64,000 nucleotides of DNA from a virus. Of the stretch, positions 14,167-63,998 are shown piece by piece. A program made the position numbers and the translations under genes. Below the pieces are notes generated by a model, which was given only the letters and a program-made list of their open reading frames with translations, ran no database searches and was not told the DNA's origin. The stretch lies in the IMG/VR virus record IMGVR_UViG_3300018080_000107; one strand, given 5' to 3'. The first letter of the stretch is position 1, and the number at the start of each line of letters is the position of its first letter.

Positions 14167-17100
14167 ATGGATCAAAACAAAAGACCACCCAAACTACCTC
14201 GTGTTTGTCGAGGTGAGTTTAATGAGCAGTGGACAGTTGAAAAGCTTCAAGCAGAAATTGATAAGCTACCAGTTCGAGATAGAAAGTTGCGGATTCTATT
14301 TGTAGGTGAGGCAAGCTTTCTTAAGACTGGATTTTCTACATATTGGGACAAGGTTGTTAGCCGACTACATAAAACTGGCAAATACGATATCGCTGAACTT
14401 GGTAGTTATGCATCAACTAATGACCCAAGAGCCAAGAATGTTCCTTGGAAGTTTTATGGTGTAATGCCAGATCAAGGCGATCAACAAGGATTTGCTGCTT
14501 ATGGCAATCCACATGGCAACGCACAAGAGCGAGCCAGATACAACGAAAATCAATTCGGCAAGGGACGTTTTGATCCAATAGTCGCTGAATTTAAGCCAGA
14601 TATAGTTGTCGATTTGCGTGACCACTGGATGACTCACTGGCAAAAAGATAGTGTCTTTCGTGACAAGTTCCACTGGATGTGGATGGCATGTGTAGATTCT
14701 TATCCTCAGAAATGGGATTGGCTAAAGGACTACGCAAAAGCAGATACGCTGTTAGCATATTCGTTCTTTGGCAAGGATGTAATAGAAAAGCAGTCACGAT
14801 CTGAAATAGCAAAATTCTTTGGCGTTGAACCTATTGATGTTTCTATAGTGTGTCAGCCTGGAATTGATACGGATATCTACCATCCAATGGACAAGATTGA
14901 AGTTAAGTCCGAATTGCACATACCTCCACAGGTGCAGATTATTGGAACAGTAATGCGTAACCAAAAGCGAAAGCTATTTCCTCGCATTATTGAATCTTTC
15001 CGTATCTTCAAGGAAAAGAATGGTTGGAATGAAACAGATCCACGCAAGAAGCGTATTAAAAACATTGACAATATCAAGCTTCTGCTACACACTTGCGTAA
15101 GAGATGTCGGTTTCGATATCCCACAAGCCGTTGTTCGTGAAGGATTGCAGACAGAAGTTCTATATTCATATCTGTGTCCAGAATGCGGCGTGTATGGGAT
15201 TAGTACATTCATAGGACATCCGGCGAAGTGTCCAAAGTGTGGAAAGCAATCTTTCATTACACCCAATACTCAAATTGGCCTACCAGATGAACAATTCTCA
15301 AAGCTGTTCAATCTCATGGATGTATATGTTCAAATGAGTATTGCAGAAGGTGATGGGATGCCAGTGCAAAACGCTAAGGCATGTGGAGTTCCTGTAGTAA
15401 TGTCTGATTATGCAGCACTTGCAGAAAAGGCACGCAACGGTGGTGGTATTCCTGTTAAGGGTGATCTTGAAACAGAATCCGAAACTATGCAATGGCGACA
15501 TTGGTTTGACCGAAACGATTTTGTAGATAAGCTGACAAAGTTGTTTAAAAAGTCTGGATACCTTGGACAAAAGGGACGTGAGGCTCGTCGATGTATCGAA
15601 GAATATTATGATTGGGATCTCACAGCAAAGAAGTGGGAATATATCTTTGACACTACAGAAGTGAATTCCGACGATGAGCGTTGGGCTAAGAAGATTGAAG
15701 TTGTAGAAATGCCATCTGATAAATTACATAAGCGAGAAGGTTTGTCCAATGAAGAGTTTGTTGCATTATGCTACAAAGAACTTCTTGGTAGAGAACCCGA
15801 TGAAGATGGAATGAAAAACTGGGTGGCTGGACTACAGCAAGGACAAGAGCGCAAATCAGTAGAAAATTTCTTTAGGGGGCAAACTTCACGCAAAAATCAG
15901 GCTGCAACTTTGTTGGGTCAAGGAAATGGGGAAATAGCCCTCAATCCTATTGAACGTATAGCCAAGGATATGAACGAGACAGATCAATTCCGCATTCTCT
16001 ATTGTATGCCCGAAACTGCTGGCGATGTTCTTATTAGTACAGGCATTATCACAGCACTCAAGAAAAAGTATCCCCATGCTTCTTTGTATGTTGCAACACA
16101 GAAGAAGTATTTCGATATACTTGAGAACAACCCACATGTTGATGGTGTATTTGAATACAATCAGGCACTTGACAATTATCGTACTGCAGAGCCATTTGGG
16201 CCATCTGTAGGATTTGTGGATCTATGTTTCAATCCTTATATTGTTACTCAAAGGATTCCACACTGGATACATGGTGGATTGGGAGAGTCATTGGGAGTCA
16301 CATACGGACATCTTTGTAATCTGAACTTGACAGACAATGAGATTCAAGACGGCATGTTTATCGACTTTGAAGAAGTTGAAGGTCTGCCAGCACAATTTGT
16401 AACATTCCACGGCAAAACAACACAAGACCCCAAAGATTATAGCAACTGGAATGCTGTGTTCGCACGACTTTCTGGTCTGCCCATTGTTCAAATTGGTGGC
16501 AAAGATGAACCATTGCTTGAACATCCAGACGTTGTTGATATGCGTGGAAAAACAACTCCGCAACAGCTTGCCTACATCATCAGCAAGGCAAAGCTACACA
16601 TCGGACTGGATTCATTCCCAGCACACGTTGCAAACGCTGTTGGAACTAAGTCTGTATTAGTTTATGGCGGAACGTATGCAAGGCAGGGCGGAATCCTTAA
16701 TAGTGATGCAATTGAGCCAGTACACCGAAATGGTTGTCACACAAGCTGCCATCTCGTCGAATGTATCCAAAAGAAGAATGGCGGACGGAAGTGCATTGAT
16801 AATATTCTTCCTGATACTATTGTAGAGGCTATCAAAAAGCATCTGGACAGCCGACATATTTTACCAGAAAAGACAATAACACTTTCTGCTTATTGTATTA
16901 TTAAGGATGGAAATAGGTTTGGCTTCCCGTACAAGAAGTGTATTGAAGCCGCCCTAAAGATCGCAGATGAATTTGTTATGGTTGACGGTGGTTCGACTGA
17001 CGGAACTTATGAAGACCTTCTCGATCTTGCTAATAGTGAGCCAAGGCTTAAGGTGTCACAACACGTGTGGGACATGAACAATCCTATGCTTATGGGTAAT

Positions 17101-17775
17101 GAAAAAACTTATGCTCGTCAACAATGCACCAATGACTATTTGATTCAACTTGATGCTGACGAAATAATCGTGGAAAAGGAGCCTGGTCAAATTAAAAAGA
17201 TGATTAAGGCTAATCCACAGGTTCCAATTTTTGATTTGCCTGTTGTCAATTTTTATGGAAACGATCAAACTGTAAGAGTTGATGACTCCATTTGGAAGTG
17301 GCGTATTTCCAAGAATGAATCAGAAATCGTTCACGGAGTACATGGCGCAGCACGTGACTTTGATCCAGACACTATGCAAATGGTGTATGACAAGAAGGTG
17401 AGCGATAGTTGTGAATATATCCATAGAGACACCCTAGAGATAATGCAGCATGTTTCAATTCTGCCACCACAGGCACATCAATTACATGCACATATCATGA
17501 ACTTACGACATAACGACCAAGAGATTCCGACTGATCTTCTTGAGCAATATGCCGATATGGTAAAGCAAATAGTAGACAATATGCCTTTGGTATTTCATTA
17601 TAGTTGGTACAACTTGGGAGCCAAAAAAGGCAGGGGTGAATTTTGGGACAATACCTTCCACGGAAAGAAGGAAGAAACCCACAATACAACAAAGGATATT
17701 GCAACACGCATTGAAGATTCTAAAGAATTGACAGTATCTGTTGATATTCTTCATCCACTTAAAGATCAGGAGTAA
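14167..17775 (+). CDS. Multidomain glycosyltransferase: GT4-like (Zn-ribbon insert), DUF4214-like, GT9 heptosyltransferase-like, GT2-like
   Basis: GT4: RNQKRK and EGDGMPVQNAKACGVPVV. DUF4214-like: FV..CY..LLGREPD..G...W. GT9: GDVLIST..I.ALKKKYP and IGLDSFPAHVANAVG. GT2: VDGGSTDGT and LDADE. Confidence 0.85.
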   Translation: MDQNKRPPKLPRVCRGEFNEQWTVEKLQAEIDKLPVRDRKLRILFVGEASFLKTGFSTYWDKVVSRLHKTGKYDIAELGSYASTNDPRAKNVPWKFYGVMPDQGDQQGFAAYGNPHGNAQERARYNENQFGKGRFDPIVAEFKPDIVVDLRDHWMTHWQKDSVFRDKFHWMWMACVDSYPQKWDWLKDYAKADTLLAYSFFGKDVIEKQSRSEIAKFFGVEPIDVSIVCQPGIDTDIYHPMDKIEVKSELHIPPQVQIIGTVMRNQKRKLFPRIIESFRIFKEKNGWNETDPRKKRIKNIDNIKLLLHTCVRDVGFDIPQAVVREGLQTEVLYSYLCPECGVYGISTFIGHPAKCPKCGKQSFITPNTQIGLPDEQFSKLFNLMDVYVQMSIAEGDGMPVQNAKACGVPVVMSDYAALAEKARNGGGIPVKGDLETESETMQWRHWFDRNDFVDKLTKLFKKSGYLGQKGREARRCIEEYYDWDLTAKKWEYIFDTTEVNSDDERWAKKIEVVEMPSDKLHKREGLSNEEFVALCYKELLGREPDEDGMKNWVAGLQQGQERKSVENFFRGQTSRKNQAATLLGQGNGEIALNPIERIAKDMNETDQFRILYCMPETAGDVLISTGIITALKKKYPHASLYVATQKKYFDILENNPHVDGVFEYNQALDNYRTAEPFGPSVGFVDLCFNPYIVTQRIPHWIHGGLGESLGVTYGHLCNLNLTDNEIQDGMFIDFEEVEGLPAQFVTFHGKTTQDPKDYSNWNAVFARLSGLPIVQIGGKDEPLLEHPDVVDMRGKTTPQQLAYIISKAKLHIGLDSFPAHVANAVGTKSVLVYGGTYARQGGILNSDAIEPVHRNGCHTSCHLVECIQKKNGGRKCIDNILPDTIVEAIKKHLDSRHILPEKTITLSAYCIIKDGNRFGFPYKKCIEAALKIADEFVMVDGGSTDGTYEDLLDLANSEPRLKVSQHVWDMNNPMLMGNEKTYARQQCTNDYLIQLDADEIIVEKEPGQIKKMIKANPQVPIFDLPVVNFYGNDQTVRVDDSIWKWRISKNESEIVHGVHGAARDFDPDTMQMVYDKKVSDSCEYIHRDTLEIMQHVSILPPQAHQLHAHIMNLRHNDQEIPTDLLEQYADMVKQIVDNMPLVFHYSWYNLGAKKGRGEFWDNTFHGKKEETHNTTKDIATRIEDSKELTVSVDILHPLKDQE

Positions 17776-17784: not shown

Positions 17785-19476
17785 ATGGAGAAACTACCAT
17801 TAATAGGTCATATGGTTGTTTTCAATGAAGCTTCATTCATAGAGGCGTCGATACGGAGTGCCCTACCATACCTTGATCAACTGATTGTGATTGAGGGTGC
17901 GTGGGGCACCGCTGTAAAAAGCAATGGTGGTATTAGTCGCTCTAATGACGGCACATTGGAAATCTTGCAGAAGCTTGTTCTCGAATATGGTGAAGAGAAG
18001 CTAAGAATTGTGTGTGCAAATGAATCTGTTCAATTAATACAAAGGTCTTTGCACTTTCAACTATTTCCAAAAGCCCATTGGTTATTTATTTTGGATGGGG
18101 ATGAAATTTACGAACCTTCTGAAATGAAGAAAGTAGTAGAAGCAACCAAAAGAACAGATGCTGATTATTTTTGCACGACAAGTTTAACATTTGTCAATGA
18201 TGCATTTCATTATTGTCCTATTGATTGGCCGCGTTTATTTAGAATAGATGGACCTGGGTATAAATTTAGAAGTCCAAATCATTTGTTAAACGCCCAGGAA
18301 CAAGAGTTGCGATATTGTGATAAGCCAATAGCTAAGTTTCATCACTATTCATATGTTCATCCTTCTGATAGGATGTTGCAAAAGATTCGTGATCGAATAG
18401 AAACACATTCAGAATTTAAATGGGAACTACATGGTAACTGGATAAAGAGAAAAGGCACCAGCGCAAAGTTACTTGAATATAACCATGTTCCAGAAATATT
18501 AAAAGATCATCCGTTGACACAACATCGTGCTCCAGCAGAGGCTTTCGATTATAAAGAGCCAGAAAAATTTGGTCTATTAATTCATAGTGGCATGGGCAAT
18601 TTGATCTTAGCTACGCCCATGCTTAAGGCTTTGCGTGCATGGAAGCCAGAGGCAAGAATATCTATCCTAACTTGGGATAGGGGTGCCAATATCTTGCACG
18701 GATGGAATGTTGTCAATGAGATCATAACAAAAAATCATGCACATTTTATTCACTCTATTGGCGGGTTAGACTATTTGTTGATTTCTCCAACTGCGGCTAT
18801 CAAAGATCCATCAATTTTAGGACAAAGCAAACATATTGTTGAACTACCTTCTAAAAACGGAGTGTGGGCAAAACATGAAGCCGAATACAATATGGATTTG
18901 ATCAAAGCACTTGGTTACAATGGAGTAATGCCAAGCCCAGAATGTTACACACCATGTAAAGTAGAAACAGATGGTGATTACGTGGTTGTGTCTATGGCTC
19001 ATTTACGAACCGATCATTGGCATCTTAAAAACATTGAGGACTTTAGAGTATGGATTGATGTTTGTCGTCATATAGTTGAGGAAATGGGTAAAAGTATTAT
19101 CTTACTTGGATGCGAAGAAGATTCAGATGATGCAACAAGGTTGTGTGAAAGTGTAAGCACAAACTTTGTTAAAAACCTGTGTGGACAAACAGATATTAAA
19201 CAGGCTGCAGCAATCATCAGACAAGCCTCTGCCTATATCGGTATTGATGGTGGCTTGGCTCATATTGCAGCGTGCTTCCAAGTTCCAAGTGTTATCGTTT
19301 GGACATTTACAAACATGATAAAGAACAGGCCGCTTAATCCACAAGCACGTCTTGTTGCCAACAAATGTAATAAGCGTATGAGATGTCAACATGGAGATTG
19401 GCAATCATGTGAACATAAATCATGTAGAAATATTAAGCCTCAAGATATAATCAAGAAAATAAAGGATATTCTATGA
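17785..19476 (+). CDS. Two-domain glycosyltransferase: GT2-like plus GT9 heptosyltransferase-like
   Basis: GT2: FNEA.FI...I.S, SNDGT and LDGDE. GT9: GMGNLILATPMLKALR, NLCGQT and IGIDGGLAHIAA, plus a Cys-rich C-terminus. Confidence 0.85.
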   Translation: MEKLPLIGHMVVFNEASFIEASIRSALPYLDQLIVIEGAWGTAVKSNGGISRSNDGTLEILQKLVLEYGEEKLRIVCANESVQLIQRSLHFQLFPKAHWLFILDGDEIYEPSEMKKVVEATKRTDADYFCTTSLTFVNDAFHYCPIDWPRLFRIDGPGYKFRSPNHLLNAQEQELRYCDKPIAKFHHYSYVHPSDRMLQKIRDRIETHSEFKWELHGNWIKRKGTSAKLLEYNHVPEILKDHPLTQHRAPAEAFDYKEPEKFGLLIHSGMGNLILATPMLKALRAWKPEARISILTWDRGANILHGWNVVNEIITKNHAHFIHSIGGLDYLLISPTAAIKDPSILGQSKHIVELPSKNGVWAKHEAEYNMDLIKALGYNGVMPSPECYTPCKVETDGDYVVVSMAHLRTDHWHLKNIEDFRVWIDVCRHIVEEMGKSIILLGCEEDSDDATRLCESVSTNFVKNLCGQTDIKQAAAIIRQASAYIGIDGGLAHIAACFQVPSVIVWTFTNMIKNRPLNPQARLVANKCNKRMRCQHGDWQSCEHKSCRNIKPQDIIKKIKDIL

Positions 19477-20438
19477 GAATTTGTGTAATTGGAAAACCGT
19501 TTTCTAACGCTGGCCACGGGGCAGAATGTGGAATTGTGGACGCACTCGTTGAGCTTGGCCATCTTGTGTGGGTGGTAGATTATGCCGCCAATAAAATGTG
19601 TGGGCCGTATCAAGGACAGTTGTGGACCGATATTGATCTTAGTAGAATTGATGAGATTGATTTTGTTCTTGCGGTTGGTCCAGGCATCCCACCAGGCCAA
19701 ACAGAAATGCCTGAAGTTATTTCTTTCTTGACAAATCATTTTTCAGTATGTTGGAACTCAGAACCAATTAAGCTTGAACAATATAAATCAAGAATATTAT
19801 CTCAGGCTCATCTTTTTGACGTATGGGCAACATTTGATGAGGGTGAAGTGCCAGAATATTCGGACAATAGTTTGCAGTCTTTCTTTTTGCCTCAAGCATA
19901 TAATCCCAAATGGTATCATCCTTTTGAAAATGCACGACCTGAAAAGTTCGCTTGCTTTGTAGGGTCTGTTGGTGGCAAGTGGCAAAATAGGGTACACTTT
20001 CTGAACAGGGCAAGAAGAATCCTTGGTGATCATTTAACAGTTCAGCAAACCTTTAATGCAGAGGTCGTTAATTCTATTTATAATCAACATTGTGTTGTCC
20101 TTAATCTTGGGCTGCACTTTGAACAACTTGGTGCTCCAACCCGGCTTACGTCGTTTGCGTTTCAGCAACGGATCTTTGAGGCAATCGGTGCTGGTGCAGT
20201 TCCAATGACAAACATTCCTGCCGATCTTAAAAATACTCCTGTGCAATGGTCTATGTTTGATAATGGTTCTGATATTATCTATTACACAAATGACAATTTT
20301 GAAGCTGTAATCAAGTATTATGCATCACATCCTGAAAAGATTGCCAACATTCGACTTAATCTTCTTGGGATGCGCCATATGCACACCTATAAAGCGAGAA
20401 TGCAGACACTTATAGAAAATGTACAAAATTTAATGTAA
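19473..20438 (+). CDS. CgeB-like GT-B glycosyltransferase
   Basis: FLPQAYNP..Y.P, FVGS...R, RIFEAIGAG and HTY..R motifs. Confidence 0.8.
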   Translation: MRICVIGKPFSNAGHGAECGIVDALVELGHLVWVVDYAANKMCGPYQGQLWTDIDLSRIDEIDFVLAVGPGIPPGQTEMPEVISFLTNHFSVCWNSEPIKLEQYKSRILSQAHLFDVWATFDEGEVPEYSDNSLQSFFLPQAYNPKWYHPFENARPEKFACFVGSVGGKWQNRVHFLNRARRILGDHLTVQQTFNAEVVNSIYNQHCVVLNLGLHFEQLGAPTRLTSFAFQQRIFEAIGAGAVPMTNIPADLKNTPVQWSMFDNGSDIIYYTNDNFEAVIKYYASHPEKIANIRLNLLGMRHMHTYKARMQTLIENVQNLM

Positions 20439-20463
20439 GAATCGTGCATTTAATCGTCTATTA
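20433..20463 (+). promoter_or_regulatory. ECF-sigma-like promoter ATGTAA-N16-CGTCTATTA upstream of the def-hldD-uxs operon
   Basis: Second copy of the motif at 13757-13787. Confidence 0.7.
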
Positions 20464-20917: not shown

Positions 20918-21372
20918 GTTACGGACTGCCGGATTTTGAGGAAAGAAAAAGTCTTGCTGAACAAAGAAGTCCTTCGACCAAAAAACGACTCTATACTTGG
21001 GAAGAAGTTGGCACAATGATCTATCAGCTTGGCAATATAATGGAGCCTCTTATTGTAATGGCTGATTATATTGTTGGTGTGAAGCGTGGTGGCCTTGTTC
21101 CAGCAGTTGCGTTAAGTAATAGGTTTAAGAAACCCCTTTTAGTAATTGATCCATTTAAATTTAAAGTTGATGATTTGCCACACGCCCCATTAATTATTGT
21201 GGATGACGTGTTGGATACTGGAAAAGTTTTCAATACAATAACTGAAAAGCTCTATATGAAACGAACTTATATGTTCGGAGCCTTATCCCGTAAGCCGTGG
21301 TTTGAAGAAGATAATAATACTTATACAGTACATGAAACTGACGCATGGATTTGTTTTCCGTGGGAGATATGA
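20914..21372 (+). CDS. Purine phosphoribosyltransferase (Gpt-like)
   Basis: RGGLVPA, IIVDDVLDTG PRPP loop and C-terminal WI.FPWE. Confidence 0.88.
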   Translation: MSYGLPDFEERKSLAEQRSPSTKKRLYTWEEVGTMIYQLGNIMEPLIVMADYIVGVKRGGLVPAVALSNRFKKPLLVIDPFKFKVDDLPHAPLIIVDDVLDTGKVFNTITEKLYMKRTYMFGALSRKPWFEEDNNTYTVHETDAWICFPWEI

Positions 21373-22334
21373 TGAGTAAAACAGCTTTAATCACTGGTTG
21401 CAATGGATTTATCGGTGCCAATATAGGCAATCGTCTTATGAATATGGGCTATGATATTCATGGTGTTGATAATGTGTTGCGGAACCACGATGCACTACCA
21501 GTCGAATATATTTCTCGAAGAGATTCTGAGTCATTCTATAAAGAGTTGAGTGAGGGTAAGGAAATATTGCCAAAACCAGATGTCATTATTCATATGGGTG
21601 CCTGTTCTTCGACAACTGAAGGCAGCATTACCACTATGATGAATAACAATTTGGTTGCCAGTATGTTGCTTGCTCAATATGCGGACGAACATAATATTCG
21701 ATTCATTTATGCGTCAAGTGCTGCGGTTTATGGAGAAGGCAAGAATTTTATGGAGTATGGCGCGGGATTACGACCGTTAAATCTCTATGGAAATTCTAAG
21801 CTTATGTTTGACAACTGGATGATTCGCAACGACATGGACGGTGTTGGGTTGCGGTTTTTCAACGTTTACGGCCCAGGAGAAGAACATAAAAACGGAATGG
21901 CGTCTATGATAACTCGTGGATATCAACAAATTCAAGAGTTTGGCGGCATTAGACTATTTATGCCTGGAATACCATTTATGGCTCGTGATTTTGTTTATGT
22001 ACAGGATGTTGTTAGTGTTGTAGTTCATTTTATTCAGAATCCATTTTTTGATGGAATCTTTAATGTCGGAACAGGTCATGCACGGACTTGGCCAGATATT
22101 GCATTAGCATGGGCAACCGTACTTAAACAACCAGTAACCATACATCCTATTGGATTCCCTCATAGTCTTGGTGGCAAATATCAATATTACACCTGTGCAA
22201 ATTTAGATCGCTTGCGCGACGTGGCAGACTATCGTAAACCATTCAGAACATTAGAAAATGGAATCCAGGATTATTACAAATGTTATATAGGAGATAAAGA
22301 TGGCGATCAAGCACAAAGTTGTGACAGTGAGTGA
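21369..22334 (+). CDS. hldD: ADP-L-glycero-D-manno-heptose 6-epimerase
   Basis: ITG.NGFIG.N, HMGACSSTTE, YASSAAVYG, PLNLYG.SK, GLRFFNVYGP.E.HK..MAS, RDFVYV.DV and GKYQ.YT.A. Start moved to the ATGA overlap. Confidence 0.9.
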   Translation: MMSKTALITGCNGFIGANIGNRLMNMGYDIHGVDNVLRNHDALPVEYISRRDSESFYKELSEGKEILPKPDVIIHMGACSSTTEGSITTMMNNNLVASMLLAQYADEHNIRFIYASSAAVYGEGKNFMEYGAGLRPLNLYGNSKLMFDNWMIRNDMDGVGLRFFNVYGPGEEHKNGMASMITRGYQQIQEFGGIRLFMPGIPFMARDFVYVQDVVSVVVHFIQNPFFDGIFNVGTGHARTWPDIALAWATVLKQPVTIHPIGFPHSLGGKYQYYTCANLDRLRDVADYRKPFRTLENGIQDYYKCYIGDKDGDQAQSCDSE

Positions 22335-22449: not shown

Positions 22450-23400
22450 ATGAAAAGAATATTGGTAACTGGCGGCAGAGGATTTATTGGGACTCAACTT
22501 TGCAACAGACTTTCAGCACAGCCTGATACAGAAGTAATAGCCGTAGACAATATGCGCTGTCCTTCATTCATGCCGCTCAATAAAAATGTACAAATCTTTG
22601 AAGCAGATGTTTCCGACCCAATGGTTTTTATCACATTGCTGCAAGCCTTCCATGAAGTACATGAAGTGTATCACTTAGCAAGCTTGGCAAGCCCAGTATG
22701 GTACAAAAGATTTCCATTGGAAACCATACGAACTAATGTAATGGGAACACATAATATGTGCGAATTGGCATTAGAATGGGGTGCCAAACTTGTATTAAGT
22801 AGTACGTCGGAAGTATATGGTGATCCTGAAACAACGCCACAAACAGAAAAATATAATGGAAATGTATCCACCAGAACAGATAGAGCGTGCTATGATGAAT
22901 CTAAGCGATGTGCAGAAACCATAGTTTATGAATTTGCCAAGAGAGGACTTAATTCAACAATAGTCCGCATCTTCAACACTTATGGACCTGGAATGCGTCA
23001 CGATGATGGTCGGGTGGTCAGTGAATTTATTATGCGTGCCCTCCAAGATGAAAATCTTATCGTCTGTAATGGTGGACAGCAGACCAGAAGCTTTTGTTAC
23101 ATAGACGATCTGCTTGATTATCTGGTTCTTGCAATGAAGACTGCACATCCTGGACCTATCAATATTGGCAATGATAAAGAAATTAGTATTTTGGATTTGG
23201 CTCAGTTGATAGGCAACATCCTTGGCGAGCAATTGCATATTGAATATAAGATAGTTGACGATGGTGATCCAAAGCGCCGCTGTCCAGATTTGACAACGGC
23301 ACGTGTTGTGCTTGGCTGTATGCCAGAAACAGAACTTACGACCGGACTTATTTATACTGTTGATTACTTTAGGAAATGGTTACAATATAAGGATGCTTAA
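22450..23400 (+). CDS. UDP-glucuronate decarboxylase (UDP-xylose synthase)-like SDR
   Basis: YHLAS.ASP..Y, STSEVYGDP, RACYDESKRCAET, RIFNTYGP.M..DDGRVVS.F, QTRSFCY and DP.RR.PD motifs. Confidence 0.88.
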   Translation: MKRILVTGGRGFIGTQLCNRLSAQPDTEVIAVDNMRCPSFMPLNKNVQIFEADVSDPMVFITLLQAFHEVHEVYHLASLASPVWYKRFPLETIRTNVMGTHNMCELALEWGAKLVLSSTSEVYGDPETTPQTEKYNGNVSTRTDRACYDESKRCAETIVYEFAKRGLNSTIVRIFNTYGPGMRHDDGRVVSEFIMRALQDENLIVCNGGQQTRSFCYIDDLLDYLVLAMKTAHPGPINIGNDKEISILDLAQLIGNILGEQLHIEYKIVDDGDPKRRCPDLTTARVVLGCMPETELTTGLIYTVDYFRKWLQYKDA

Positions 23401-25425: not shown

Positions 25426-26088
25426 TTATGCGAATTGGAATATAAAGACAAGATCCCAATCGTCTAAGAATCCCACAGCGTCTGCTCGTACACTTATGGC
25501 AGCACGCCAAATGTGTTCCGCTTGATCTGGGAAATATTTAGTGTTTGGACTATGATCTGCAAAATCAATTCCATTGTAGATACTTCCCATTGAAGACCAA
25601 TAAACAGGCGGGGTCCAATTTTCTATCGACCCAGCTATTCCAGATTCATTGATTTCAAATCCATTTACTGTTACATTAGATGGCGCATCACCTTGCGTTG
25701 CGGTGTTGTCATATGCAAACAGCTTAGCGTTGTAAGTGCTTATTCCACCAATATTTCCAGAAGCACGGAACCAAATTAATAAAGTTCCAGAAGCTATATG
25801 GTCTGCATCTTGATAATCTCCTATTGCGACACGAGGATGACCTGAACTTGAACATCCAGATGCATCAATGTATTTATTATTTACAAGAGCGTCCCACGCC
25901 GCTGGGTCGCGTGCTCCAGTCGAATCAACCACCCAAGTAGAATCATTCCAATTTTCTACGATGATTGCATCTCCTGGTCCGTTAATGCCAAAAAATCCCA
26001 TGTGATCATAAGTTCCCTCTCCAAGAGGGCTTATCATAACACCAGAATTATGACATGCATGAAAAGTTAATACTCCAGAAGTTGCCAT
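25426..26088 (-). CDS. Putative virion structural protein (beta-rich, SG-rich)
   Basis: Has its own late-type promoter and an AGGAGG RBS; 7 of 20 Ser are followed by Gly. Confidence 0.6.
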   Translation of the reverse strand: MATSGVLTFHACHNSGVMISPLGEGTYDHMGFFGINGPGDAIIVENWNDSTWVVDSTGARDPAAWDALVNNKYIDASGCSSSGHPRVAIGDYQDADHIASGTLLIWFRASGNIGGISTYNAKLFAYDNTATQGDAPSNVTVNGFEINESGIAGSIENWTPPVYWSSMGSIYNGIDFADHSPNTKYFPDQAEHIWRAAISVRADAVGFLDDWDLVFIFQFA

Positions 26089-26140: not shown

Positions 26141-27790
26141 CTAATCATCTAAAAATTCAACAGGATCATGAACCATATCATCCAAAAATCCAACATATGT
26201 AATAAGGGCTTTTGTATTCCCTTCTTCTTTGCCAGTGAATGTATTACAAGAAGCTCCATAGTCACGCATATTAGCCATGTCTTGTAATGCTATTGTTATG
26301 CTACTAATAGGATTGTGATATGTATCAAGGCCATTTGTGTTAGCCTCTTCAAATTTGTCATAAAGATTTTCTCCGGTTATTGGTCCTCCGTGAAATACAA
26401 CAGCGCCCGGTTCGTCTTGCCACGGACTTAATGCAGATATCCAGCCACCCACTCTTGCATACCTATATACTTCTTCTCTTCCAGAGGTTAATCGAACCAT
26501 TAGTCCTGCACCACCTTGAGTGAATGCCGCAACCTCATCTTCAGTTTTTAATTCAAATGTTTGAAATTTGTGGAAAGTAAAGAAATCATTCCTTTGTGGA
26601 TTTTGACATGCCGACCTTCCAAAAACTTGCGCTGGTGCAAATCCATATGGCAATGCAGGGCCGACCGCTCTGTCAATTTGTTCGCAGTCTGTAAACCATG
26701 TGCAGCTTGTCGCCCAACCTGGCTCTGGAACATCTAGAAACAATCCATCTCCGTCACATGCTCCATGCCCACAAAAATGCCATTTGCCAGATTCAAAATC
26801 AATCATTTTACTAACACGTGTACCAGACCAAAAGAAAGAACACGATTGTCTATGTAGCACCCAAGAAGATGTCCACCAATCTCCAGCAATATCTCCATGA
26901 ATCCTCGAAAAGTTTTCCATTTTCGGAACTTGATATCGCAACATTTGAATTACGAAAGAACAAAATGTATAGAATATTCTTTTGTGATCTCCAATAGTAT
27001 ATCGGTTGGCTTCACTTGACCAGTTGGCATTCTCTGCAGGTCGCTTGGCAAAATCGCTATGCTTAGAATAGATCGATAGTCCCAAAACAGTTAATAGTTC
27101 CTGTTTGGTAATGGGCCATTCGCCATCTTGCATCCTTGACAACAAAGGAATACCCTCTGTTAGTTTGTTTCGTGCCGTCTTAAAAGCATCAACATATATT
27201 CCGCGACTTGAATTACTTGAAGAAGGAAGTGTATATTGAAATTTATGAAATGCTCCGTGCATGGTTTCTCCAGAGATATTCTCAGGAAAAGAATAAAAGG
27301 GAGTTCCCGCGCTGTCAAGATTGGCAGCAATTCCTGGAAGTCTTGCCACGAGTGCTCTTGATACGAATGGAAAACCAGTATAGTGCGCTATGTTAAAACA
27401 TCTACCAAAATGAGACTTTAAATTATCCGGCTCGATCATTAATGTTTCGATTGCGTTCTTGATATCTTCTACGATGTTGGCAAATGCAACAATTGAAATT
27501 CTATTGTTTAACACTGAACGTCCGATAGAAGGAGTAAAGGTATCTTTGACATTTCCTTTTCCGTCATAAGTATTAAAAGTCAACGCTGGCAATCCGTAAA
27601 TTCGTTGTCGTGCCAAATTAACATTATACATGATTTCTTCGAGATAGCGACCATCGAATGGAATTGCTGTTACTTTACTTGTCACGCTTGTTTGAAACGG
27701 ACCCCAACCAGATGTTTTAGTTACTTCTCCTGGAAGTACAAATGGATGTGGTTGTGTGTATTCTAATATTTCATTAGTGAATGCTGACAT
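26141..27790 (-). CDS. Putative tail-tip/virion protein
   Basis: Structural-module context; AGGAG RBS; Cys/Trp-rich central segment. Confidence 0.55.
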   Translation of the reverse strand: MSAFTNEILEYTQPHPFVLPGEVTKTSGWGPFQTSVTSKVTAIPFDGRYLEEIMYNVNLARQRIYGLPALTFNTYDGKGNVKDTFTPSIGRSVLNNRISIVAFANIVEDIKNAIETLMIEPDNLKSHFGRCFNIAHYTGFPFVSRALVARLPGIAANLDSAGTPFYSFPENISGETMHGAFHKFQYTLPSSSNSSRGIYVDAFKTARNKLTEGIPLLSRMQDGEWPITKQELLTVLGLSIYSKHSDFAKRPAENANWSSEANRYTIGDHKRIFYTFCSFVIQMLRYQVPKMENFSRIHGDIAGDWWTSSWVLHRQSCSFFWSGTRVSKMIDFESGKWHFCGHGACDGDGLFLDVPEPGWATSCTWFTDCEQIDRAVGPALPYGFAPAQVFGRSACQNPQRNDFFTFHKFQTFELKTEDEVAAFTQGGAGLMVRLTSGREEVYRYARVGGWISALSPWQDEPGAVVFHGGPITGENLYDKFEEANTNGLDTYHNPISSITIALQDMANMRDYGASCNTFTGKEEGNTKALITYVGFLDDMVHDPVEFLDD

Positions 27791-27798
27791 GCTTACTC

Positions 27799-30700: not shown

Positions 30701-31182
30701 TAATTAGTCATTAACCAAAGTGGTGAATTTACAGAATACAATGTTCCACCAGTTTCAAGTTCTTTCGGGACTACAATTACATTTGATAGATTGCTATCTA
30801 ATAGTGGTTCAGTATGAATCAAATATTTGTTTAGGTCGATCTGTCTGCCATCTTGACAAGACACTCGTGTTACAAATCCAGCGGAACTTATGCTGCTATC
30901 AACATGTGTAACATACCCGTAAAATCTCATTGATCCAATTTTTAATGCACAGGTTTCACCAATTCTGTCTTGGGAGACTGGAATTTGATCTTTAGCCACA
31001 ATAGTTAGCTCAACTGAATGTGGTGTAGAGTTAAACCCAAAAGAAGCATTAATATCTTGAATCCAAACTTGACCAAACGAATCCTGCAGGCCAAGATTGA
31101 CATTGACAGCATCTGTATCATTGAACAATAGCTCGGATTCAGCTATTCCAGAAACATATATATAAGGACTATCTAGTGGCAT
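27799..31182 (-). CDS. Putative baseplate hub / central tail-tip protein
   Basis: The N-terminus resembles a hub (FYGYVT.V, V.CQDGR, I.D.CGYD.YY..D.I.LIDR); 1127 aa. Confidence 0.6.
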   Translation of the reverse strand: MPLDSPYIYVSGIAESELLFNDTDAVNVNLGLQDSFGQVWIQDINASFGFNSTPHSVELTIVAKDQIPVSQDRIGETCALKIGSMRFYGYVTHVDSSISSAGFVTRVSCQDGRQIDLNKYLIHTEPLLDSNLSNVIVVPKELETGGTLYSVNSPLWLMTNYGATYSEIYNAVINRGIVKLPSPSVIANRLGNHEAYRWPFSLTPLFDALLQIFDDCGYDVYYYNDEIRLIDRSQSVEVAQAFLDDKYKINTRDGYDQSDRPTSYTILGAKKQGGVGTISNVVEYQNLVSVGTDELIPCWNDIEIMYHDNNGVLRRYKPTDDELKMAIKGIEHWVYYKRYEFEQSGDDFPRGWMESRIDPYPYGIEGSAVEAALSFGGGRTDVRKVIKNRRSLDCNWLVQWYDAVSRHARTYYGKLYYCSPSQDFLRKCMIIDSAWVDDNVDNRDIPDVYSPFYQHGKISAFVEFSKDDVRGFGLDGTSTPVAYTEWNESADKIYLPISVSLHSPTEDKDRVFPGITDTRIYVTLPEIVVYDVEDHPLLVNLPTLQSFEQTGAINSGSGVIQDTFQLYLTERDYNDPKMTIVPMSGISNFFIPVQYNIRYGDDGSATSGTTDGFYNGEIDDKFAPWTRQNPQNPTEEMLEKTLALVGNDDIDHFFEAEVTGLPEINFFANFSNDDHIPVYPFTSISITIGSNGMTSRYNSKTQLNELLRANKIEWSRFRSRLDRIQHFANLSRMNTDMEVNLEPQRILTSHWRAAEERQNVPKMVWGTTSTNPEEYDEEEEVESKSFVKAVRITGKRYATVADPNGGATAGTQEFYQGEDDEGNVWPPNWATVDDQLSQSATNQDPYANGSTGEAQSETRVIYQDGQWIEVVVGNPDAPGTARSESRKTGFAPCNDGYLRKGQVALYHQEDINGTIYSYFTGGLPLEDARMVEIVGDIVEDGDNVYANVKTLPHPSDTDTDTYQFFKVPFASAREAISQGYGDGSVVPISHNKMVKSVSANSSSDATEAGGEFDDKDPGSLRPGTTHSSSDGSPLGTLYIVNPPVVGALTVTVITPPGSDGSGGTVAVVGRPDIQYGAGTEQQDTIYFVGADPDLIYEGDYGVMTRGMDDDWYVTILKPLFTPYDSFE

Positions 31183-51800: not shown

Positions 51801-52561
51801 GTCAATAGTTTTTGGGCAGTAACAGAATCTACAGTGGAAACATTGAGCAAATCCATTGCTGCTCGTGTTGCTCGCATCGCATCTTCAGCATTAAGACCAG
51901 TTCTTACAAAACCAGTCATAGCGTCAGAAACTTCAGAAAAACTTCGTCGGCTATCAACTGCAAGGTCAAGAAGATCGTTTGTTATTGCGTCGATTGACTC
52001 TGCGGTTTCTCCTCCTAAAACCTTGGCTAAGCTTGCGGCAGTGCTATCAAGTTCTTTCATCGCGTCCGAAGTCGCACGCAGTGCTTCCATAAACTTAAAT
52101 AGTAATGTTGTCCACACAAAGAATCCTGAAAATCGTTTTCCAATTTCTGCAATGCGAACACCAAATAGTGCTGAACTCACACCAGCATTTTGAAAACTTT
52201 TTCCAAGCTCTCGCACCTTTTGGTCTGCTGCAGTCAATACTTGCACTTCTTTTGGATCTACTGAGCGACTTTTACTCATTCTAATGCGTGCGTCTGCCAA
52301 TCCTTTAGTGGCCTTAGCATCTTTATTGATCGCAGTGGTGTGTGAAGTTAGTGCTTTGGTTTCCTTATTTATCTTCGCAGCACCCTGTTGGCCACCGCCA
52401 ACGCTATCTATTTTAAGTTGCTCGAACTTCTTTTTCAGTTGTGCGAGATTAGTTTTGGCAATTGCTGCATTGATAGCTGCTTGAACCTGCTTTGTAATTG
52501 CAGATGTTTCAATGTCGCTATCAAGAAACTTAATCCCAAGTCGTATCTGTACGTCAGCCAT
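45827..52561 (-). CDS. Tail tape measure protein (2244 aa)
   Basis: TP901-like core (AG..A..FG.S.EELAA...A..IGTAFKTI), a hydrophobic segment and long Ala/Gln/Glu coiled coils; lies downstream of the tube and chaperones. Confidence 0.93.
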   Translation of the reverse strand: MADVQIRLGIKFLDSDIETSAITKQVQAAINAAIAKTNLAQLKKKFEQLKIDSVGGGQQGAAKINKETKALTSHTTAINKDAKATKGLADARIRMSKSRSVDPKEVQVLTAADQKVRELGKSFQNAGVSSALFGVRIAEIGKRFSGFFVWTTLLFKFMEALRATSDAMKELDSTAASLAKVLGGETAESIDAITNDLLDLAVDSRRSFSEVSDAMTGFVRTGLNAEDAMRATRAAMDLLNVSTVDSVTAQKLLTTTVNAMGVSWEDARDKVAVFSQLADQNAVVVKDLAQGFIRAGATANAFGISTEELAAMMATVAGTTQLAANRIGTAFKTILVNTAKNRQRIIELTAEYTRNEKSLTQLNAENNSVAKTLQFVAGAWDKLGDSQRTAIGQLVGGARRFTELSALMSNNEKFLNNLNAAQERSGEVQRKATIEAQTLEAAHRALGVSIAKFAKLLQDVGATSFYKETVNLLSNVIGTITGGIQAVQDFAKGIESWSPFLGGALSSFSAIKNLVLVLFAQVLLPHIKKAAAGFSAFLTASQAGIKKLIEAEGGRIVNITQTNAKYAQQNKLIADGNKLLQQRKATVDPGMLAGGLAGQPSSAQSSPGVSKQVKALAAVRKAQTDNFQIAINDVTKGLQKWRAPNDAVIKQQRSIVTSLKNFGSNVKRIGSRIATFGGRVNNITQSPAFKMASWAVLLQATDAVSTQLNRLSEIAEENGNTTTKATADATNAILKTTVPMALFGRKAAIAGAAIGALQFTIQAWQQRVEAQNRLRDEEIKAAKAVVNQQELMAAAARDFTIAQGLVSRGLAEWQEFATPQGIERRLVFDTTKLPLQVSVEVLKAGGVAAIKQEINELVKQADLLKVEWEEAFQELEDAEPLAKSLRKALADIGKTQVDIDISRAEDALGKMDSEIKTFLDGIQEANREQFEISFFGGENVKDMQLPFNEIAEITDKINRGVIDASQAMGEWNKNVKVSTPQLKLMEDELVRMEKQARDLTQQFSDIQTSTQNIGKDGIKLEVGDVDNIYNAIDNILEGQKQIQEGSRLTDTDVQKLAESYKQIAELTGDKIPDNLSDHVRKLVEGAAGADALKDRMDVINAITQNWNQDLEEALKTGKQLAGVNEAISKFTKRYEEAQKEANKTGADFVINAFKAVESIKLRNKALEESLSLQQEEARVALELQLLQQDIALSAALQGQNISQSEKAMISAKKVVTETRDAMVKAAQAAEQLKQQNIEAARAQGLGEKEISPIIRQIELRLNAQLTEQSKAAIDELGKLILQRTDEIKQLEMSRFDVVKTELEQLKQLEAARGEIGRNITEAFLQSAEKAGISDQEIAAVLNTGVIKDQLANLSTEITNQLNNASKVELAYTLQRINANSNAETKMLQAVRNRTTDTVKRAQLASQIIQAEEKKKQDTAIAVAQAMERSVVDSFSRMEEAAQGATDSLNKMVSLRADIQNLDKEITKLKAQMKTVAVPEELANRAGRRDSLVAQNEQIRAQIEHIRAVQAVNNQLREQKKALQDARDSANQYVIGIKRELGLTKTLTNAFGQIAIASETAANMLMSSEDSIVRVRTESAQASLDIFKSEYDKLKGFGESLFTASPTQIRKLAQANAILQNSTASMSDTLAQMPAHLRDAAAQILKLRFGEQGEELVARAGLERAGIDTSALDTLKSQVVTSAQAVANEQIRMVEEQQKTNEGIDGMVGNMERQIRQNELEIRESEEAAQKIEEMKNATEESGQTLKQQLKDAQERKKFLQGQLEQEQNTYRSNVAILDSINPGMRALVEGVPEQIATNKGILEGISENTRTMSELAKSLGGLTEKGIQSAEGPIADISKVALDDELLIQKLSENANATAPLAAEITALRSNIDAFQQAQINLTNTQVNMTEVLNGVLQQLEEQRSLTEEEGADEAISQEKMRDAVIEANRQVMEETLVPNQQAIVESTAKSAALDETSATNSEVIAQQTTESAAKLASIETTSRTTSENLAKNLVHAENMAKTNLKVQENTAAATRAIENLAGGSSLGRVVASIDAVARAVAALNIKINVTVKNITNKYSGGSNRATGLTMPEMGNLVAAAKREKAKMPAGSELVLANSSELVMTPQQAAKVFGQVNIPDTTVRSSRKSIERTSQPGSNGSLRLEGAESVPALLKKIEALMGQQKELMDLAGDKKLFKQEQNIKIDVGGKRELTVKGVAEMGQALEQIFKRNMAKITSKAESAALQATLNHIIRRLKEAGIDGV

Positions 52562-58886: not shown

Positions 58887-58887
58887 C

Positions 58888-59619: not shown

Positions 59620-59621
59620 TT

Positions 59622-60347
59622 TTAATTCCTTATTTGAATACGCATATATTGCGTTTTAAAAGTTGACTGTTCTCCATAGCCAAGTGCCACCACGTTATAT
59701 GTTTTTCCTTGACCATTGTTGTATAAGGACAACACTTCTTCTGGTGTTAAGCCACGATTCCAAATAGCAAGTTCGTCATAATAAGATTGGTCTATGCTCG
59801 ATGTTCCATGACTCATTGTCCAAATAGTAGCGGCATTTGCCAAGTCGCCAACTTGATAGCTATGATGATTTACCAAAACTCCATCTATCCACACATCACG
59901 TCTTGCAGTTGTACCATCATGAATACCTACAAAGTGGTGCCATTCTCCGTCAACAGGAAGTGAAAATGTACGAGAGTGCGAATACCCAGAAGTTCTTTCG
60001 CGTGTCGCCCATGTACATCCTATTGTCGCTGGTCCACCACCGCCACCAAAAATAGAAAAATTAGGTGTCGGCGTTCCACCTTTTAACCAATATTGATTGT
60101 ATCCGAGATTTGGTTTTATCCACATGGATATCGTTATGTTGTCAAATGTCATAGGGACAGTTGTTGTTTCTCCTGTAACACCTGATTTATTCCATTTTGG
60201 AGCATTTCCAAATTTACCAGTTGTAGATTCAACGGCCGTACCTCCAGTTTGTTGCAAGGTTAAACCAGCGATTCTATCAATCCACGGACCACCCGGATAA
60301 GAATTTTCAAAATCCCAATAATAAACTAATCCATTGCTTAATGCCAT
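59622..60347 (-). CDS. LamG domain protein (type D1)
   Basis: TISMWIKP, DGEWHHFVG, WIDG and DELAIWNRGLT motifs. Confidence 0.85.
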   Translation of the reverse strand: MALSNGLVYYWDFENSYPGGPWIDRIAGLTLQQTGGTAVESTTGKFGNAPKWNKSGVTGETTTVPMTFDNITISMWIKPNLGYNQYWLKGGTPTPNFSIFGGGGGPATIGCTWATRERTSGYSHSRTFSLPVDGEWHHFVGIHDGTTARRDVWIDGVLVNHHSYQVGDLANAATIWTMSHGTSSIDQSYYDELAIWNRGLTPEEVLSLYNNGQGKTYNVVALGYGEQSTFKTQYMRIQIRN

Positions 60348-61042
60348 TACACTATTCCCCTGTTTGTAATTTTAAATATGGGTTGATTTTGTGATATTTT
60401 TTCATATTGGAGCCCAGCACCATCGTTGTACATTTGTAAAGCTTCTGCATCAGTTAATGTTCTGTTCCAAATTGCTAATTCGTCAATAACACCATCGAGT
60501 ATAGTGCTTGGACCTATATTATAACCACCTATTTGCAATGGAAGACCAGTAGGAGCATCAAATGTAAATGAAAAATCTTCTATAACTTTCACTCCATCAA
60601 ACCACAATTCAGCTTTTTGTGTAGATGCATTATAGGTCAACATTATATAAGAATCGTCCCATGTTCCAACTGGATGTTGCCACCATGTTACAGATGGTGA
60701 AGCCCCATATCCATTTAATATTAAGAAACCACTGCTAAGCTCTAAATTTATTCCCCTAGATGGAAGAGACTTCCAAGAAATTATAAGATATCCTGAATCA
60801 TTAACCTTTGACCAAAACCCTATAGTAAAATTCTTTGTGGGGTCAATAAAATCTTGATTTGGCACAACCATATTGCCGCTTGTAGCAGTAGAAAAATCTA
60901 CCCCATCTACAAAATGTCCACCAGAACTTGCAATTGGAAACGCGCCAGATTCCACCATAGTATAATTCCCATGAGAATCTTCCCTTGTTCCAGATGGCTC
61001 ATTCATTTTATAATAAGCAATCAAATTCTGATATAGTGACAT
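60347..61042 (-). CDS. LamG domain protein (type C1)
   Basis: FTIGFW, WFDG and DGVIDELAIWNRTLT motifs. Confidence 0.85.
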   Translation of the reverse strand: MSLYQNLIAYYKMNEPSGTREDSHGNYTMVESGAFPIASSGGHFVDGVDFSTATSGNMVVPNQDFIDPTKNFTIGFWSKVNDSGYLIISWKSLPSRGINLELSSGFLILNGYGASPSVTWWQHPVGTWDDSYIMLTYNASTQKAELWFDGVKVIEDFSFTFDAPTGLPLQIGGYNIGPSTILDGVIDELAIWNRTLTDAEALQMYNDGAGLQYEKISQNQPIFKITNRGIV

Positions 61043-61043
61043 T

Positions 61044-61781: not shown

Positions 61782-61782
61782 A

Positions 61783-62771: not shown

Positions 62772-63998
62772 CTATATTATAAATCCAAGATTTTGAAGCG
62801 TCATTTGGGCACTCCAAACCTTAACTGGCTTATTGTTTGAAGAAGCTGCAAATCGCAAACTAATAAGTTCCAAACTTCCCAGTTCTATAATAATATTCGC
62901 TGACACATCGAGTACAGTAGCACTTCTGAAATATGATCTTGTTCCAGGTATTTCTACATCATCTTTAAACAATGCAACAGCATGTGTTGTAGCTGAGTCA
63001 CCTTCAACAGACACACTGTATGTCGCACGTGCTTGAGAAACAATCCCATGTGGGAAGAACGACTGGAAACCACTCGGCGAAATACTTACACCTGTTCCAC
63101 CTGATCCTCCACTTGCCTCATGAAAAACATAATATTCAAATTGTTCAGCAACTGGCAAATCAAAAGATTGACCGTTCCACGCATTATCTTCATATATAGT
63201 AGAATACCTCAAAAGTGGATTAGTAATTCTATCCCAAATATTATCGTGTCCATATCGTAAATAACCACTTGCAAAGTGATAATATTCATCACCAAAAACG
63301 GCTGTAGTTCCAGAAGCCACACCAGGCATATCACCAGTCCAACCACTTGCTACCGCACGCGCTGGCACAACAGGATTGTCTGCTATCGTTATTGAGTCAG
63401 AAGAAATATGTACTGTTCCGGTCCCGATTTGTACTCCGTTTACAAAGTATCCCGACTGTGCAGTAATTGTTCCCAGTTTGTCAATGGTACACTTTTCATC
63501 TGTTGTCCGTAAATCCCATCCAGTACCTGCGTTCTGAAGATAAATCATATCCCCTGCGCCAGCACCAGTTTTTACCAGATCAAGAACATGGCTATTTCCT
63601 TGATTGTTTATATTGATACAATTACCAACAGTTGTATTGCTCATGTAGAAACAATGGTCAGTTCCACCACTCTTCTGCATATAGATGCCATACCCACCGC
63701 CAGTATGAATGAACTCTAAAGATGTACCGTCACTTCCACTATTAATTTTTATTCCGCCACCTTCACCGGCAACGATATTAATAGCTTCTTTTGTTGCACT
63801 GGCATTTGAAATGTCAATACCATAACCTTCGCCAGTGTTATTTATATCAAGTGCAGATCCACTTCCAGCATTCTCAATTTGCATTGCATGCGAATCACCA
63901 ACCGTGGTTTTATCAATGTACAGCCCACGTTCTTCTCCAGCTTGAGTTATGCTTAACCCAATCTCATCATTGTTTTGAGTGATATCAAGTGAGCTATC
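62772..63998 (-). CDS. Fibre/spike-like virion protein with ~11-12-aa beta-solenoid repeats (5' truncated by the window)
   Basis: The frame stays open upstream of 63884 (...DSSLDITQNNDEIGLSITQAGEERGLYIDK...); repeating G-x-[LI]-x-I units; 10 SG in the last 370 aa. Confidence 0.65.
   Translation of the reverse strand, partial: DSSLDITQNNDEIGLSITQAGEERGLYIDKTTVGDSHAMQIENAGSGSALDINNTGEGYGIDISNASATKEAINIVAGEGGGIKINSGSDGTSLEFIHTGGGYGIYMQKSGGTDHCFYMSNTTVGNCININNQGNSHVLDLVKTGAGAGDMIYLQNAGTGWDLRTTDEKCTIDKLGTITAQSGYFVNGVQIGTGTVHISSDSITIADNPVVPARAVASGWTGDMPGVASGTTAVFGDEYYHFASGYLRYGHDNIWDRITNPLLRYSTIYEDNAWNGQSFDLPVAEQFEYYVFHEASGGSGGTGVSISPSGFQSFFPHGIVSQARATYSVSVEGDSATTHAVALFKDDVEIPGTRSYFRSATVLDVSANIIIELGSLELISLRFAASSNNKPVKVWSAQMTLQNLGFII

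Follow-up and report, generated by a model that had tools for sequence, protein, structure and literature searches.

A large uncultured phage and all of its relatives that we found carry far more Ser-Gly (SG) dipeptides in their tail-tip proteins than the composition of these proteins predicts, and the serines of these pairs are unusually well conserved. The stretch of DNA analysed here, referred to as the window, is 64,000 nucleotides long (IMG/VR record IMGVR_UViG_3300018080_000107) and forms part of a phage genome of ~166 kb (165,953 bp). Besides a virion gene module on the minus strand, it encodes on the plus strand several glycosyltransferase (GT) domains together with enzymes of sugar-nucleotide synthesis. 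Tentatively, we read the SG serines on the outer tail-tip and baseplate proteins as acceptors for O-glycosylation, with a purely structural motif as a serious competitor. A search of the literature found no publication describing a dipeptide signature of this kind.

Ser-Gly excess in the tail-tip proteins

The tail-tip block considered here consists of the 13 proteins encoded at 25426-45824 (6733 aa). The expected numbers of dipeptides were derived from each protein's own composition, and the z-scores for individual proteins (Table 1) were obtained from composition-preserving shuffles. In the pooled block, 120 SG pairs were counted against 52.7 expected (z 9.3), making SG the strongest of all 400 dipeptides; the runner-up, Pro-Ser, reached z 3.9. 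Other dipeptides in the block are ordinary, including the reversed pair Gly-Ser (GS, 1.10x) and the pairs Thr-Gly (TG, 0.80x), Asn-Gly (NG, 0.96x) and Asp-Gly (DG, 0.95x). The outer tail-tip proteins of the window phage and of all its relatives have a two- to four-fold excess of SG. For comparison, SG stands at 0.61x in the plus-strand replication and sugar genes of the window, where DnaE has 4 SG pairs (3.4 expected) and the 1202-aa transferase has 2 (3.5 expected).

A bias of this kind had been proposed in a sequence-only reading of the window, from counts made by hand. All of those counts were reproduced, including the ones for the tape measure, DnaE and transferase comparators, and the enrichment survives the shuffles, with z up to 5.9 for a single protein. 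The Ser-Gly excess is real, and it is stronger than that reading could show. Its specificity for residue and order held, with SG at z 9.3 and GS, TG, NG and DG at expectation, as did the sequence context and the restriction to a subset of virion proteins that spares the internal tape measure.

The context in which the pair is found is [P/A/T/Q/G]-S-G-[I/V/T/L], with [P/A]-S-G-[I/V/L/T] as the core form. Pro and Ala dominate the position before the serine, Pro being enriched 4.2x there, and a charged residue (D, E, K or R) follows the pair in 9% of cases, against a background of 17%. The serine codons TCT, AGT and AGC each contribute to the SG pairs; the signal therefore lies at the amino-acid level and not in a single DNA word, and a DNA-level cause was rejected on this ground. 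Also rejected was the avoidance of deamidation or isomerisation, by which SG would replace NG or DG, as these two pairs stand at 0.95-0.96x in the window and at 0.76-1.26x in the enriched proteins of the relatives.

Some of the block proteins are paralogues of one another: the product of the gene at 31229 is related to that at 35565, those at 38305, 39022 and 43953 form a second group, and part of the product at 34054 is related to that at 41646. After paralogues are counted together, the SG excess still spans at least six unrelated protein families.

Conservation in relatives and in control phages

The clade comprises uncultured phages of 150-176 kb with long tape measures. The SG-rich relatives examined, which have syntenic tail modules and were taken from JGI and IMG/VR contigs, are L001, L002, G001-G004, G011 and G016; G016 is the nearest relative of the window phage, and G004 and G011 are complete genomes. 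The SG excess was found again in every relative found. Moreover, the enriched and the spared proteins match across all of the relatives examined, and the tape measure is spared everywhere. For example, six homologues of the 936-aa protein, at 33-41% identity, all have SG z-scores of 4.5-6.5; in the alignment of this family (seven sequences), nine SG columns are invariant, and 10 of the 11 invariant serines lie inside an SG pair. In the family of the 435-aa protein encoded directly after the tape measure, S86-G87, S187-G188 and S218-G219 are invariant. All 36 representatives of the 235-aa family (the query, one 74%-identical fragment and 34 proteins at 29-45% identity) are SG-rich, with 307 pairs against 104 expected and almost no TG, NG or DG.

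Conservation is tied to the serine of the pair. In alignments of the window proteins with their orthologues, serines are conserved at 67% within SG and 33% elsewhere, against a background of 49%, and Thr in TG, Asn in NG and Ala in Ala-Gly are conserved below the same residues elsewhere. Considered as pairs, 67% of the SG sites are positionally common with the orthologues, compared with 16-41% for other X-Gly pairs and 29% for SG in two non-enriched neighbours. These alignments support strong purifying selection on the motif.

No comparable pattern was seen in phages outside this group. In the head, tail and baseplate proteins of T4, SG stands at 1.17x, with none above z 2. The control phages G007 and G009, which are complete environmental genomes of 200 and 238 kb, each show a marginal SG excess in no more than one protein, and a third control, G010, has four moderately enriched proteins. 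In these three controls the serine of an SG pair is conserved at 36-43%, compared with 42-44% for other serines. It can therefore be concluded that the SG excess is not a general trait of beta-rich phage tail proteins. A different picture is offered by G005, a distant relative and a single case, where Thr-Gly ranks first among the dipeptides in the tail-tip proteins (45 against 18.6 expected, z 6.1), Ser-Gly is only mildly raised and the flanks differ. The common factor would therefore be a hydroxyl residue before Gly, which is a hint towards hydroxyl chemistry.

Structural setting of the Ser-Gly sites

The AlphaFold2 model of the 235-aa protein (pLDDT 69) is a beta-sandwich, in which 9 of the 11 SG pairs are placed in loops or termini and the other 2 at strand ends. 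Fold searches with this model gave nothing at E ≤0.001 in Foldseek and Z-scores of at most 5.8 in VIA-align, a generic likeness to pilin or Ig-like beta-sandwiches. The AlphaFold2 model of the 936-aa protein was unusable (pLDDT 37). Some SG sites fall in recognisable repeats of the form S-G-x-phi-G-G (phi, hydrophobic residue) or in the PKD motif HTYxxSGxY.

Repeats of roughly 13-30 aa that end in phi-G-G-phi, often with S-G before (e.g., T-S-G-S-I-G-G-I), were also noted at residues ~517-680 of the 936-aa protein and ~425-495 of its 764-aa paralogue. These runs look like a beta-solenoid or fibre segment.

Sugar genes of the window

Pfam places six GT domains in three genes of the window, two of them GT9, and detects no GT family on these transferases beyond GT1/GT4-like, GT2 and GT9. 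The GT4-like core of the 1202-aa protein contains a CxxC-x14-CxxC knuckle, the four cysteines of which (C337, C340, C355 and C358) are invariant in the alignment. The GT9 domain of the same protein scores 36.9 bits against PF01075 (cut-off 22), over the donor-binding half of the model only. Its GT2 part (residues 910-1052) has as best solved relative GmaR (PDB 22ao), the Listeria flagellin O-GlcNAc transferase; at E 1.3e-5 the match is weak and may reflect the GT2 fold alone. The 563-aa protein lies nearest to the lipopolysaccharide (LPS) heptosyltransferase II model, yet below its cut-off: none of the NCBIfam equivalogs for heptosyltransferases I, II and III was reached, the best score being 67.7 bits against the 134.6-bit cut-off of type II. 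With the Aah/TibC model TIGR04414 (cut-off 200), the 563-aa protein scores 22.1 bits and the 1202-aa protein gives no hit at E ≤0.001. The 316-aa short-chain dehydrogenase/reductase (SDR), judged by its full-length match (Table 1), is clearly a UDP-glucuronate decarboxylase (UDP-xylose synthase, UXS); the next class scores 125 bits, and no NCBIfam model was reached at its cut-off.

A variant of the large transferase was seen in G002, where the orthologue of the 1202-aa protein (L025, G002:C1:43700-48600, ORF 58-4761, minus strand) is 1567 aa long and the match is split between query residues 6-89 and 79-1193, ~1.1 kb apart, which points to a ~360-aa insertion near residue 89, possibly an intein or a homing-endonuclease element.

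Candidate O-glycosylation of the tail tip

The motif is Ser-specific, conserved and virion-limited, and every SG-rich genome has a large GT cluster, rich in multidomain transferases that appear to be soluble; the simplest reading is therefore that the SG serines are O-glycosylation sites. In the mechanism that we propose, the ancient, conserved [P/A]-Ser-Gly-[I/V/L/T] motif that about ten outer tail-tip and baseplate proteins and a few other virion proteins bear would have its serines glycosylated by soluble transferases which the phage itself encodes and which act in the host cytoplasm. Initiation would most likely fall to the GT4-like/Zn-knuckle/DUF4214 module at the N-terminus of the 1202-aa protein, the sole transferase part common to all SG-rich relatives. 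It is 60% identical in G016, 51% in G003 (a piece at the contig end), 37% in G004, 34% in G011 and 25% in G005, the most divergent. Relatives of the module were found on at least 556 IMG/VR contigs and, in the ESM Atlas, in virus-only clusters. The glycan might then be extended by lineage-specific domains, which in the window phage would be the fused GT9 and GT2 domains, the 563-aa GT2 and GT9 protein and the 321-aa transferase, with donors supplied by the phage HldD and UXS. The motif, its specificity and conservation, its limitation to certain virion proteins and the enzyme inventory are observed; we infer three parts of this scheme, namely the modification of the serines, the enzyme that starts the chain and the sugars that are used.

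The proposal can be widened to a sequon-directed cytoplasmic O-glycosylation system that is widespread in uncultured phages, in which a virus-specific GT4/Zn-knuckle/DUF4214 enzyme would read [P/A]-Ser-Gly-hydrophobic turns at dozens of tail-tip sites, and extension would differ by lineage (here heptose and/or xylose). In this full form it is a doubtful, though possible, account.

Other targets of the transferases have to be considered as well. No ThyA-family hydroxymethylase was found in four relatives that are at least 91% complete. The hydroxymethyl-pyrimidine route to glycosylated DNA, the usual acceptor, is therefore missing, and DNA glycosylation is unlikely to be the function of the transferases. 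Action on the host envelope is still conceivable.

A number of observations weigh against O-glycosylation of the SG serines. Three proteins within the block (27799-31182, 26141-27790 and the 149-aa one at 37847-38296) have no SG excess, and neither do the candidate major structural proteins encoded at 53616-54671 (351 aa) and 54819-56006, the second of which is the most conserved structural protein (76% identical to G016). The depletion of SG in the non-virion proteins was not replicated in G004, G011 and G016, where these stand at 0.92-1.11x. The content of the GT cluster varies among the SG-rich relatives. GT9 is present in the sub-clade of the window (G001, G002 and G016) and in G005, and was not found in the complete SG-rich G004 and G011, nor in G012. 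HldD reached its cut-off in none of four relatives at least 91% complete (G016, G004, G011 and G012), which have no orthologue of it. An orthologue of UXS, 52% identical, was seen only in G016; G004, G011 and G005 have only SDRs that are ~25% identical to the window UXS. Orthologues of the 563-aa transferase are confined to G001, G002 and G016, and those of the 321-aa transferase to close relatives. As the SG excess occurs without GT9, HldD and UXS, the heptose and xylose enzymes are lineage-specific additions that are not needed for the signature.

Even for the GT4 module, the co-occurrence with the SG excess is ambiguous. The SG-poor complete genomes G007 and G009 carry the GT4 core at 36-37% identity, making it as similar as those of G004 and G011, and lack DUF4214. 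The long form, which includes DUF4214, is found alongside this tail module and its Dit-like protein, so that enzyme and tail module are co-inherited and their association is confounded by descent. In addition, the number of lineage-private SG pairs is close to chance. The excess therefore represents old, fixed sites, and it consists entirely of positionally conserved ones, as a structural motif would give.

Alternative explanations for the motif

Nearly as likely as O-glycosylation is that the motif is purely structural. Here [P/A]-S-G-phi would be a favoured turn or strand-start element of the beta-sandwich and beta-solenoid domains of which the tail tip of this clade is made. It would descend from old domain families and be retained for the sake of folding or assembly; the serines would be unmodified, and the transferases would act elsewhere, on the host envelope or on another glycan. 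This would account for the SG positions in loops or strand ends in the one usable model, for the positional conservation of 67% of the pairs with private pairs at chance, and for the sites in S-G-x-phi-G-G repeats or the PKD motif. It also agrees with the paralogy that links several enriched proteins, the differing GT content of the SG-rich relatives and the existence of phages that have the GT4 core and no SG excess. It is harder to see why an inherited fold element should be in excess in six or more protein families of unrelated origin and fold when the pairs typical of hairpin turns, NG and DG, stay at expectation, and why the beta-rich tail proteins of T4, G007 and G009 should show nothing similar. 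The doubled conservation of Ser before Gly, which is missing in the control phages, and the use of Thr-Gly instead in G005 also argue against a role in folding only.

It is unlikely, though worth considering, that the motif is read by something other than a glycosyltransferase, either for another O-linked modification of Ser (phosphate, acyl or ester cross-link) or as a docking signal for a tail-tip assembly chaperone. The hydroxyl specificity (Ser here, Thr in G005), the strong conservation and the limitation to proteins that assemble into one structure could all be explained in this way. However, Pfam and PHROGs scans identified neither a kinase nor an acyltransferase nor a dedicated chaperone in the neighbourhood of these genes, and the radical SAM gene at 23401-24279 is conserved but placed elsewhere in G016. 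We know of no precedent for recognition of such a motif by anything other than a glycosyltransferase.

Less probable still is the version put forward in the sequence-only reading, by which the whole particle is coated with heptose/xylose glycans on very many SG serines, built by the GT9 domains, HldD and UXS. The gene assignments behind it were upheld, as the window does combine about six GT domains, including two GT9, an HldD above the TIGR02197 cut-off and a UXS that matches UXS1 over its full length; TibC and Aah, moreover, provide a precedent for the heptosylation of Ser. However, none of GT9, HldD and UXS tracks the SG excess across the relatives: the excess persists without GT9 in the complete G004 and G011, and likewise without HldD (at cut-off in 0 of 4 relatives) and without UXS (only in G016), and the GT9 domains score no more than 22 bits on an Aah/TibC model with a cut-off of 200. 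The notion of a coat does not agree with an excess that is concentrated in tail-tip and baseplate proteins and a few others, with the product of 54819-56006 and its 351-aa neighbour unenriched. Flanks of Pro/Ala and hydrophobic residues, which are not acidic, are unlike the animal xylosylation site that had been invoked as a parallel. What is retained from that reading is thus a real, specific and selected SG bias in genomes with large GT clusters. Its heptose/xylose chemistry, its coat over the whole particle and its analogy to xylosylation find no support.

An artefact of composition, codon bias or chance can be dismissed with near certainty: the block proteins are indeed Ser- and Gly-rich, but the shuffles (z up to 5.9 per protein, 9.3 pooled), the use of several codons and the recurrence of the excess in relatives at 25-60% identity and 39-47% GC speak against it.

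Other features of the window

The virion module is a single, tightly packed minus-strand block that runs from 63884 down to 25426 and includes the tape measure gene (Table 1). The proteins encoded past the tape measure have almost no Pfam or PHROGs matches, and the 1127-aa and 765-aa proteins gave no match in PDB sequence searches. The tail block, the 936-aa protein and the 1202-aa transferase found no relatives in 50,697 phage records (megablast, tblastn). At the upstream end of the module, the frame of the 370-aa protein is open to the window end (62772-63998, 408 aa).

Table 1. Features of the window and of one distant relative. SG counts are followed by the expected number in brackets.
Feature	Coordinates	Strand	Details
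220-aa tail-end protein	25426..26088	-	7 SG (2.1), z 3.8; 7/7 positions common with L001, 6/7 with L002
549-aa and 1127-aa tail-module proteins	26141..31182	-	No SG excess; same exceptions in L001, L002
936-aa LamG/PKD-type tail protein	31229..34039	-	25 SG (9.0), z 5.8; TG 5, GS 9
764-aa paralogue of the 936-aa protein	35565..37859	-	18 SG (6.6), z 5.0; C-terminal PKD domain
235-aa beta-sandwich protein	38305..39012	-	11 SG (2.6), z 5.9; SG holds 11/23 Ser
227-aa paralogue of the 235-aa and 184-aa proteins	39022..39705	-	4 SG (1.7)
642-aa SG-rich tail protein	39714..41642	-	10 SG (4.6)
765-aa SG-rich tail protein	41646..43943	-	14 SG (6.5), z 3.2; 11/14 positions common with L002
184-aa SG-rich protein	43953..44507	-	6 SG (2.2), z 3.0
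435-aa protein encoded next after the tape measure, at the place of Dit (distal tail protein)	44517..45824	-	7 SG (2.9)
2244-aa tape measure protein	45827..52561	-	Pfam PF10145; 4 SG (8.3); internal control
231-aa member of the tandem LamG-like array	60347..61042	-	6 SG (2.2)
370-aa SG-rich protein	62772..63884	-	10 SG (4.8), z 2.7
PhoH, RecA, DnaB, primase, DnaE, SSB	up to ~25 kb	+	Profile matches
1202-aa multidomain glycosyltransferase	14167..17775	+	GT4-like GT-B core (residues ~31-577), then DUF4214, GT9 (~743-844), GT2 (~924-1040)
563-aa GT2 and GT9 transferase	17785..19476	+	PF00535; PF01075 (59.5 bits, cut-off 22, donor-binding half only); PDB 1PSW, E 1e-8
321-aa Glyco_trans_1_2 transferase	19473..20438	+	Pfam PF13524
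Peptide deformylase, phosphoribosyltransferase, HldD, UDP-xylose synthase, radical SAM, dCMP deaminase	after the three transferase genes	+	Profile matches
HldD, ADP-glyceromanno-heptose 6-epimerase	21345..22334	+	TIGR02197, 282.6 bits (cut-off 274.6)
UDP-glucuronate decarboxylase (UDP-xylose synthase), 316-aa SDR	22450..23400	+	Full-length match to human UXS1 (2B69, 4GLL), 260 bits, E 4e-76
Promoter-like motif, first copy	13758-13784	+	Precedes the ssb-transferase operon
Promoter-like motif, second copy	20434-20460	+	Precedes the def-PRT-hldD-uxs operon (PRT, phosphoribosyltransferase)
Thr-Gly-rich tail-tip proteins of G005, four or five	G005:C1:35314-39112 and 48543-49418 (L014)		Dipeptide count

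A tandem array at 56951-62541 (minus strand) contains eight genes for proteins of ~180-250 aa. Six of the eight (58173-62541) are LamG-like paralogues with 24-42% mutual identity, and the only SG-rich member of the array is that encoded at 60347-61042. The array had no BLAST match at E ≤1e-5 in G016.

On the plus strand, the phage encodes a PhoH (2842-3528) and a peptide deformylase (20480-20917); no orthologue of the deformylase was found in the syntenic relative G016. The radical SAM protein (292 aa) is below every NCBIfam cut-off and is 48% identical to its homologue in G016, which is encoded ~65 kb away from the sugar genes. A promoter-like motif, TGTAA-N16-CGTCTATTA (TGTAA-N16-CGTCTA(TTA)), has exactly two copies in the window, where 0.09 would be expected, and none upstream of the tail genes. 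As the motif is restricted to the two sugar operons, it provides no timing link to the tail genes.

Significance

If the O-glycosylation reading is true, no protein glycosylation system of the sequon type would have been described in phages before this one, and the decoration would sit at the end of the particle that recognises the host, not on the capsid. It would then bear on host range, protease resistance and losses to grazing or adsorption, and would help to interpret the many orphan GT clusters in environmental phage genomes. Glyco-engineering, too, would gain a short, portable acceptor tag together with a soluble enzyme. Even if the motif is structural only, a dipeptide signature that is strong, conserved and clade-specific is notable in its own right, and it serves in practice to mark the outer virion proteins when the structural genes of a phage belong to no known family.

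Comparison with known systems

A close parallel is offered by the GT-B enzymes TibC and Aah, which work in the cytoplasm, place heptose on many serines of a folded beta-helix and recognise the substrate with the help of a four-Cys metal knuckle (PMC4358343). As in the action of these enzymes (bacterial autotransporter heptosyltransferases, BAHT) on AIDA-I and TibA, the putative phage system would involve a soluble cytoplasmic GT-B enzyme and many serines at strand-loop-strand positions of beta-rich proteins, secreted ones in the bacterial case. The knuckle of the bacterial enzymes is inserted in the GT-B fold, and the invariant CxxC-x14-CxxC insert of the phage GT4 module may be its counterpart. 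The BAHT enzymes take ADP-heptose as their donor, and the window phage also has GT9 domains and HldD. However, the phage knuckle is in a GT4-like module and not in GT9, and no sequence relation was found between this module and TibC. The phage GT9 domains reach at most 22 bits on the family model (cut-off 200), and there are SG-rich relatives without GT9 and HldD. Furthermore, where the bacterial enzymes act on one autotransporter, those of the phage would act on about ten unrelated virion proteins.

Mycobacteriophages encode GTs that modify their own structural proteins in the cytoplasm, with glycans at the C-termini of capsid and tail-tube subunits, as relayed for Freeman et al. 2023 (Cell Host Microbe) in PMC12619734. 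The window phage is similar in encoding GTs, six domains in three genes, that would act on its own virion proteins. In contrast to those C-terminal sites, the candidate SG pairs here number dozens and lie dispersed along the tail-tip proteins, and the structural proteins encoded at 53616-54671 and 54819-56006 are unenriched.

The O-xylosylation of animal proteoglycans also has Ser-Gly as acceptor dipeptide, and the UXS gene of the window is closely similar to human UXS1 (E 4e-76). Unlike the animal sites, the phage SG pairs are flanked by Pro/Ala and hydrophobic residues rather than acidic ones; UXS is missing from the SG-rich G004 and G011, and the window transferases belong only to GT1/GT4-like, GT2 and GT9 Pfam families.

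Giant viruses carry out autonomous glycosylation with multidomain soluble transferases such as chlorovirus A064R; the glycans are N-linked on the major capsid protein, in viruses of eukaryotic hosts. The window phage resembles them in having several GT domains fused in one soluble chain, and, if the O-glycosylation reading is right, its glycan would be built directly on the virion protein, with no lipid carrier.

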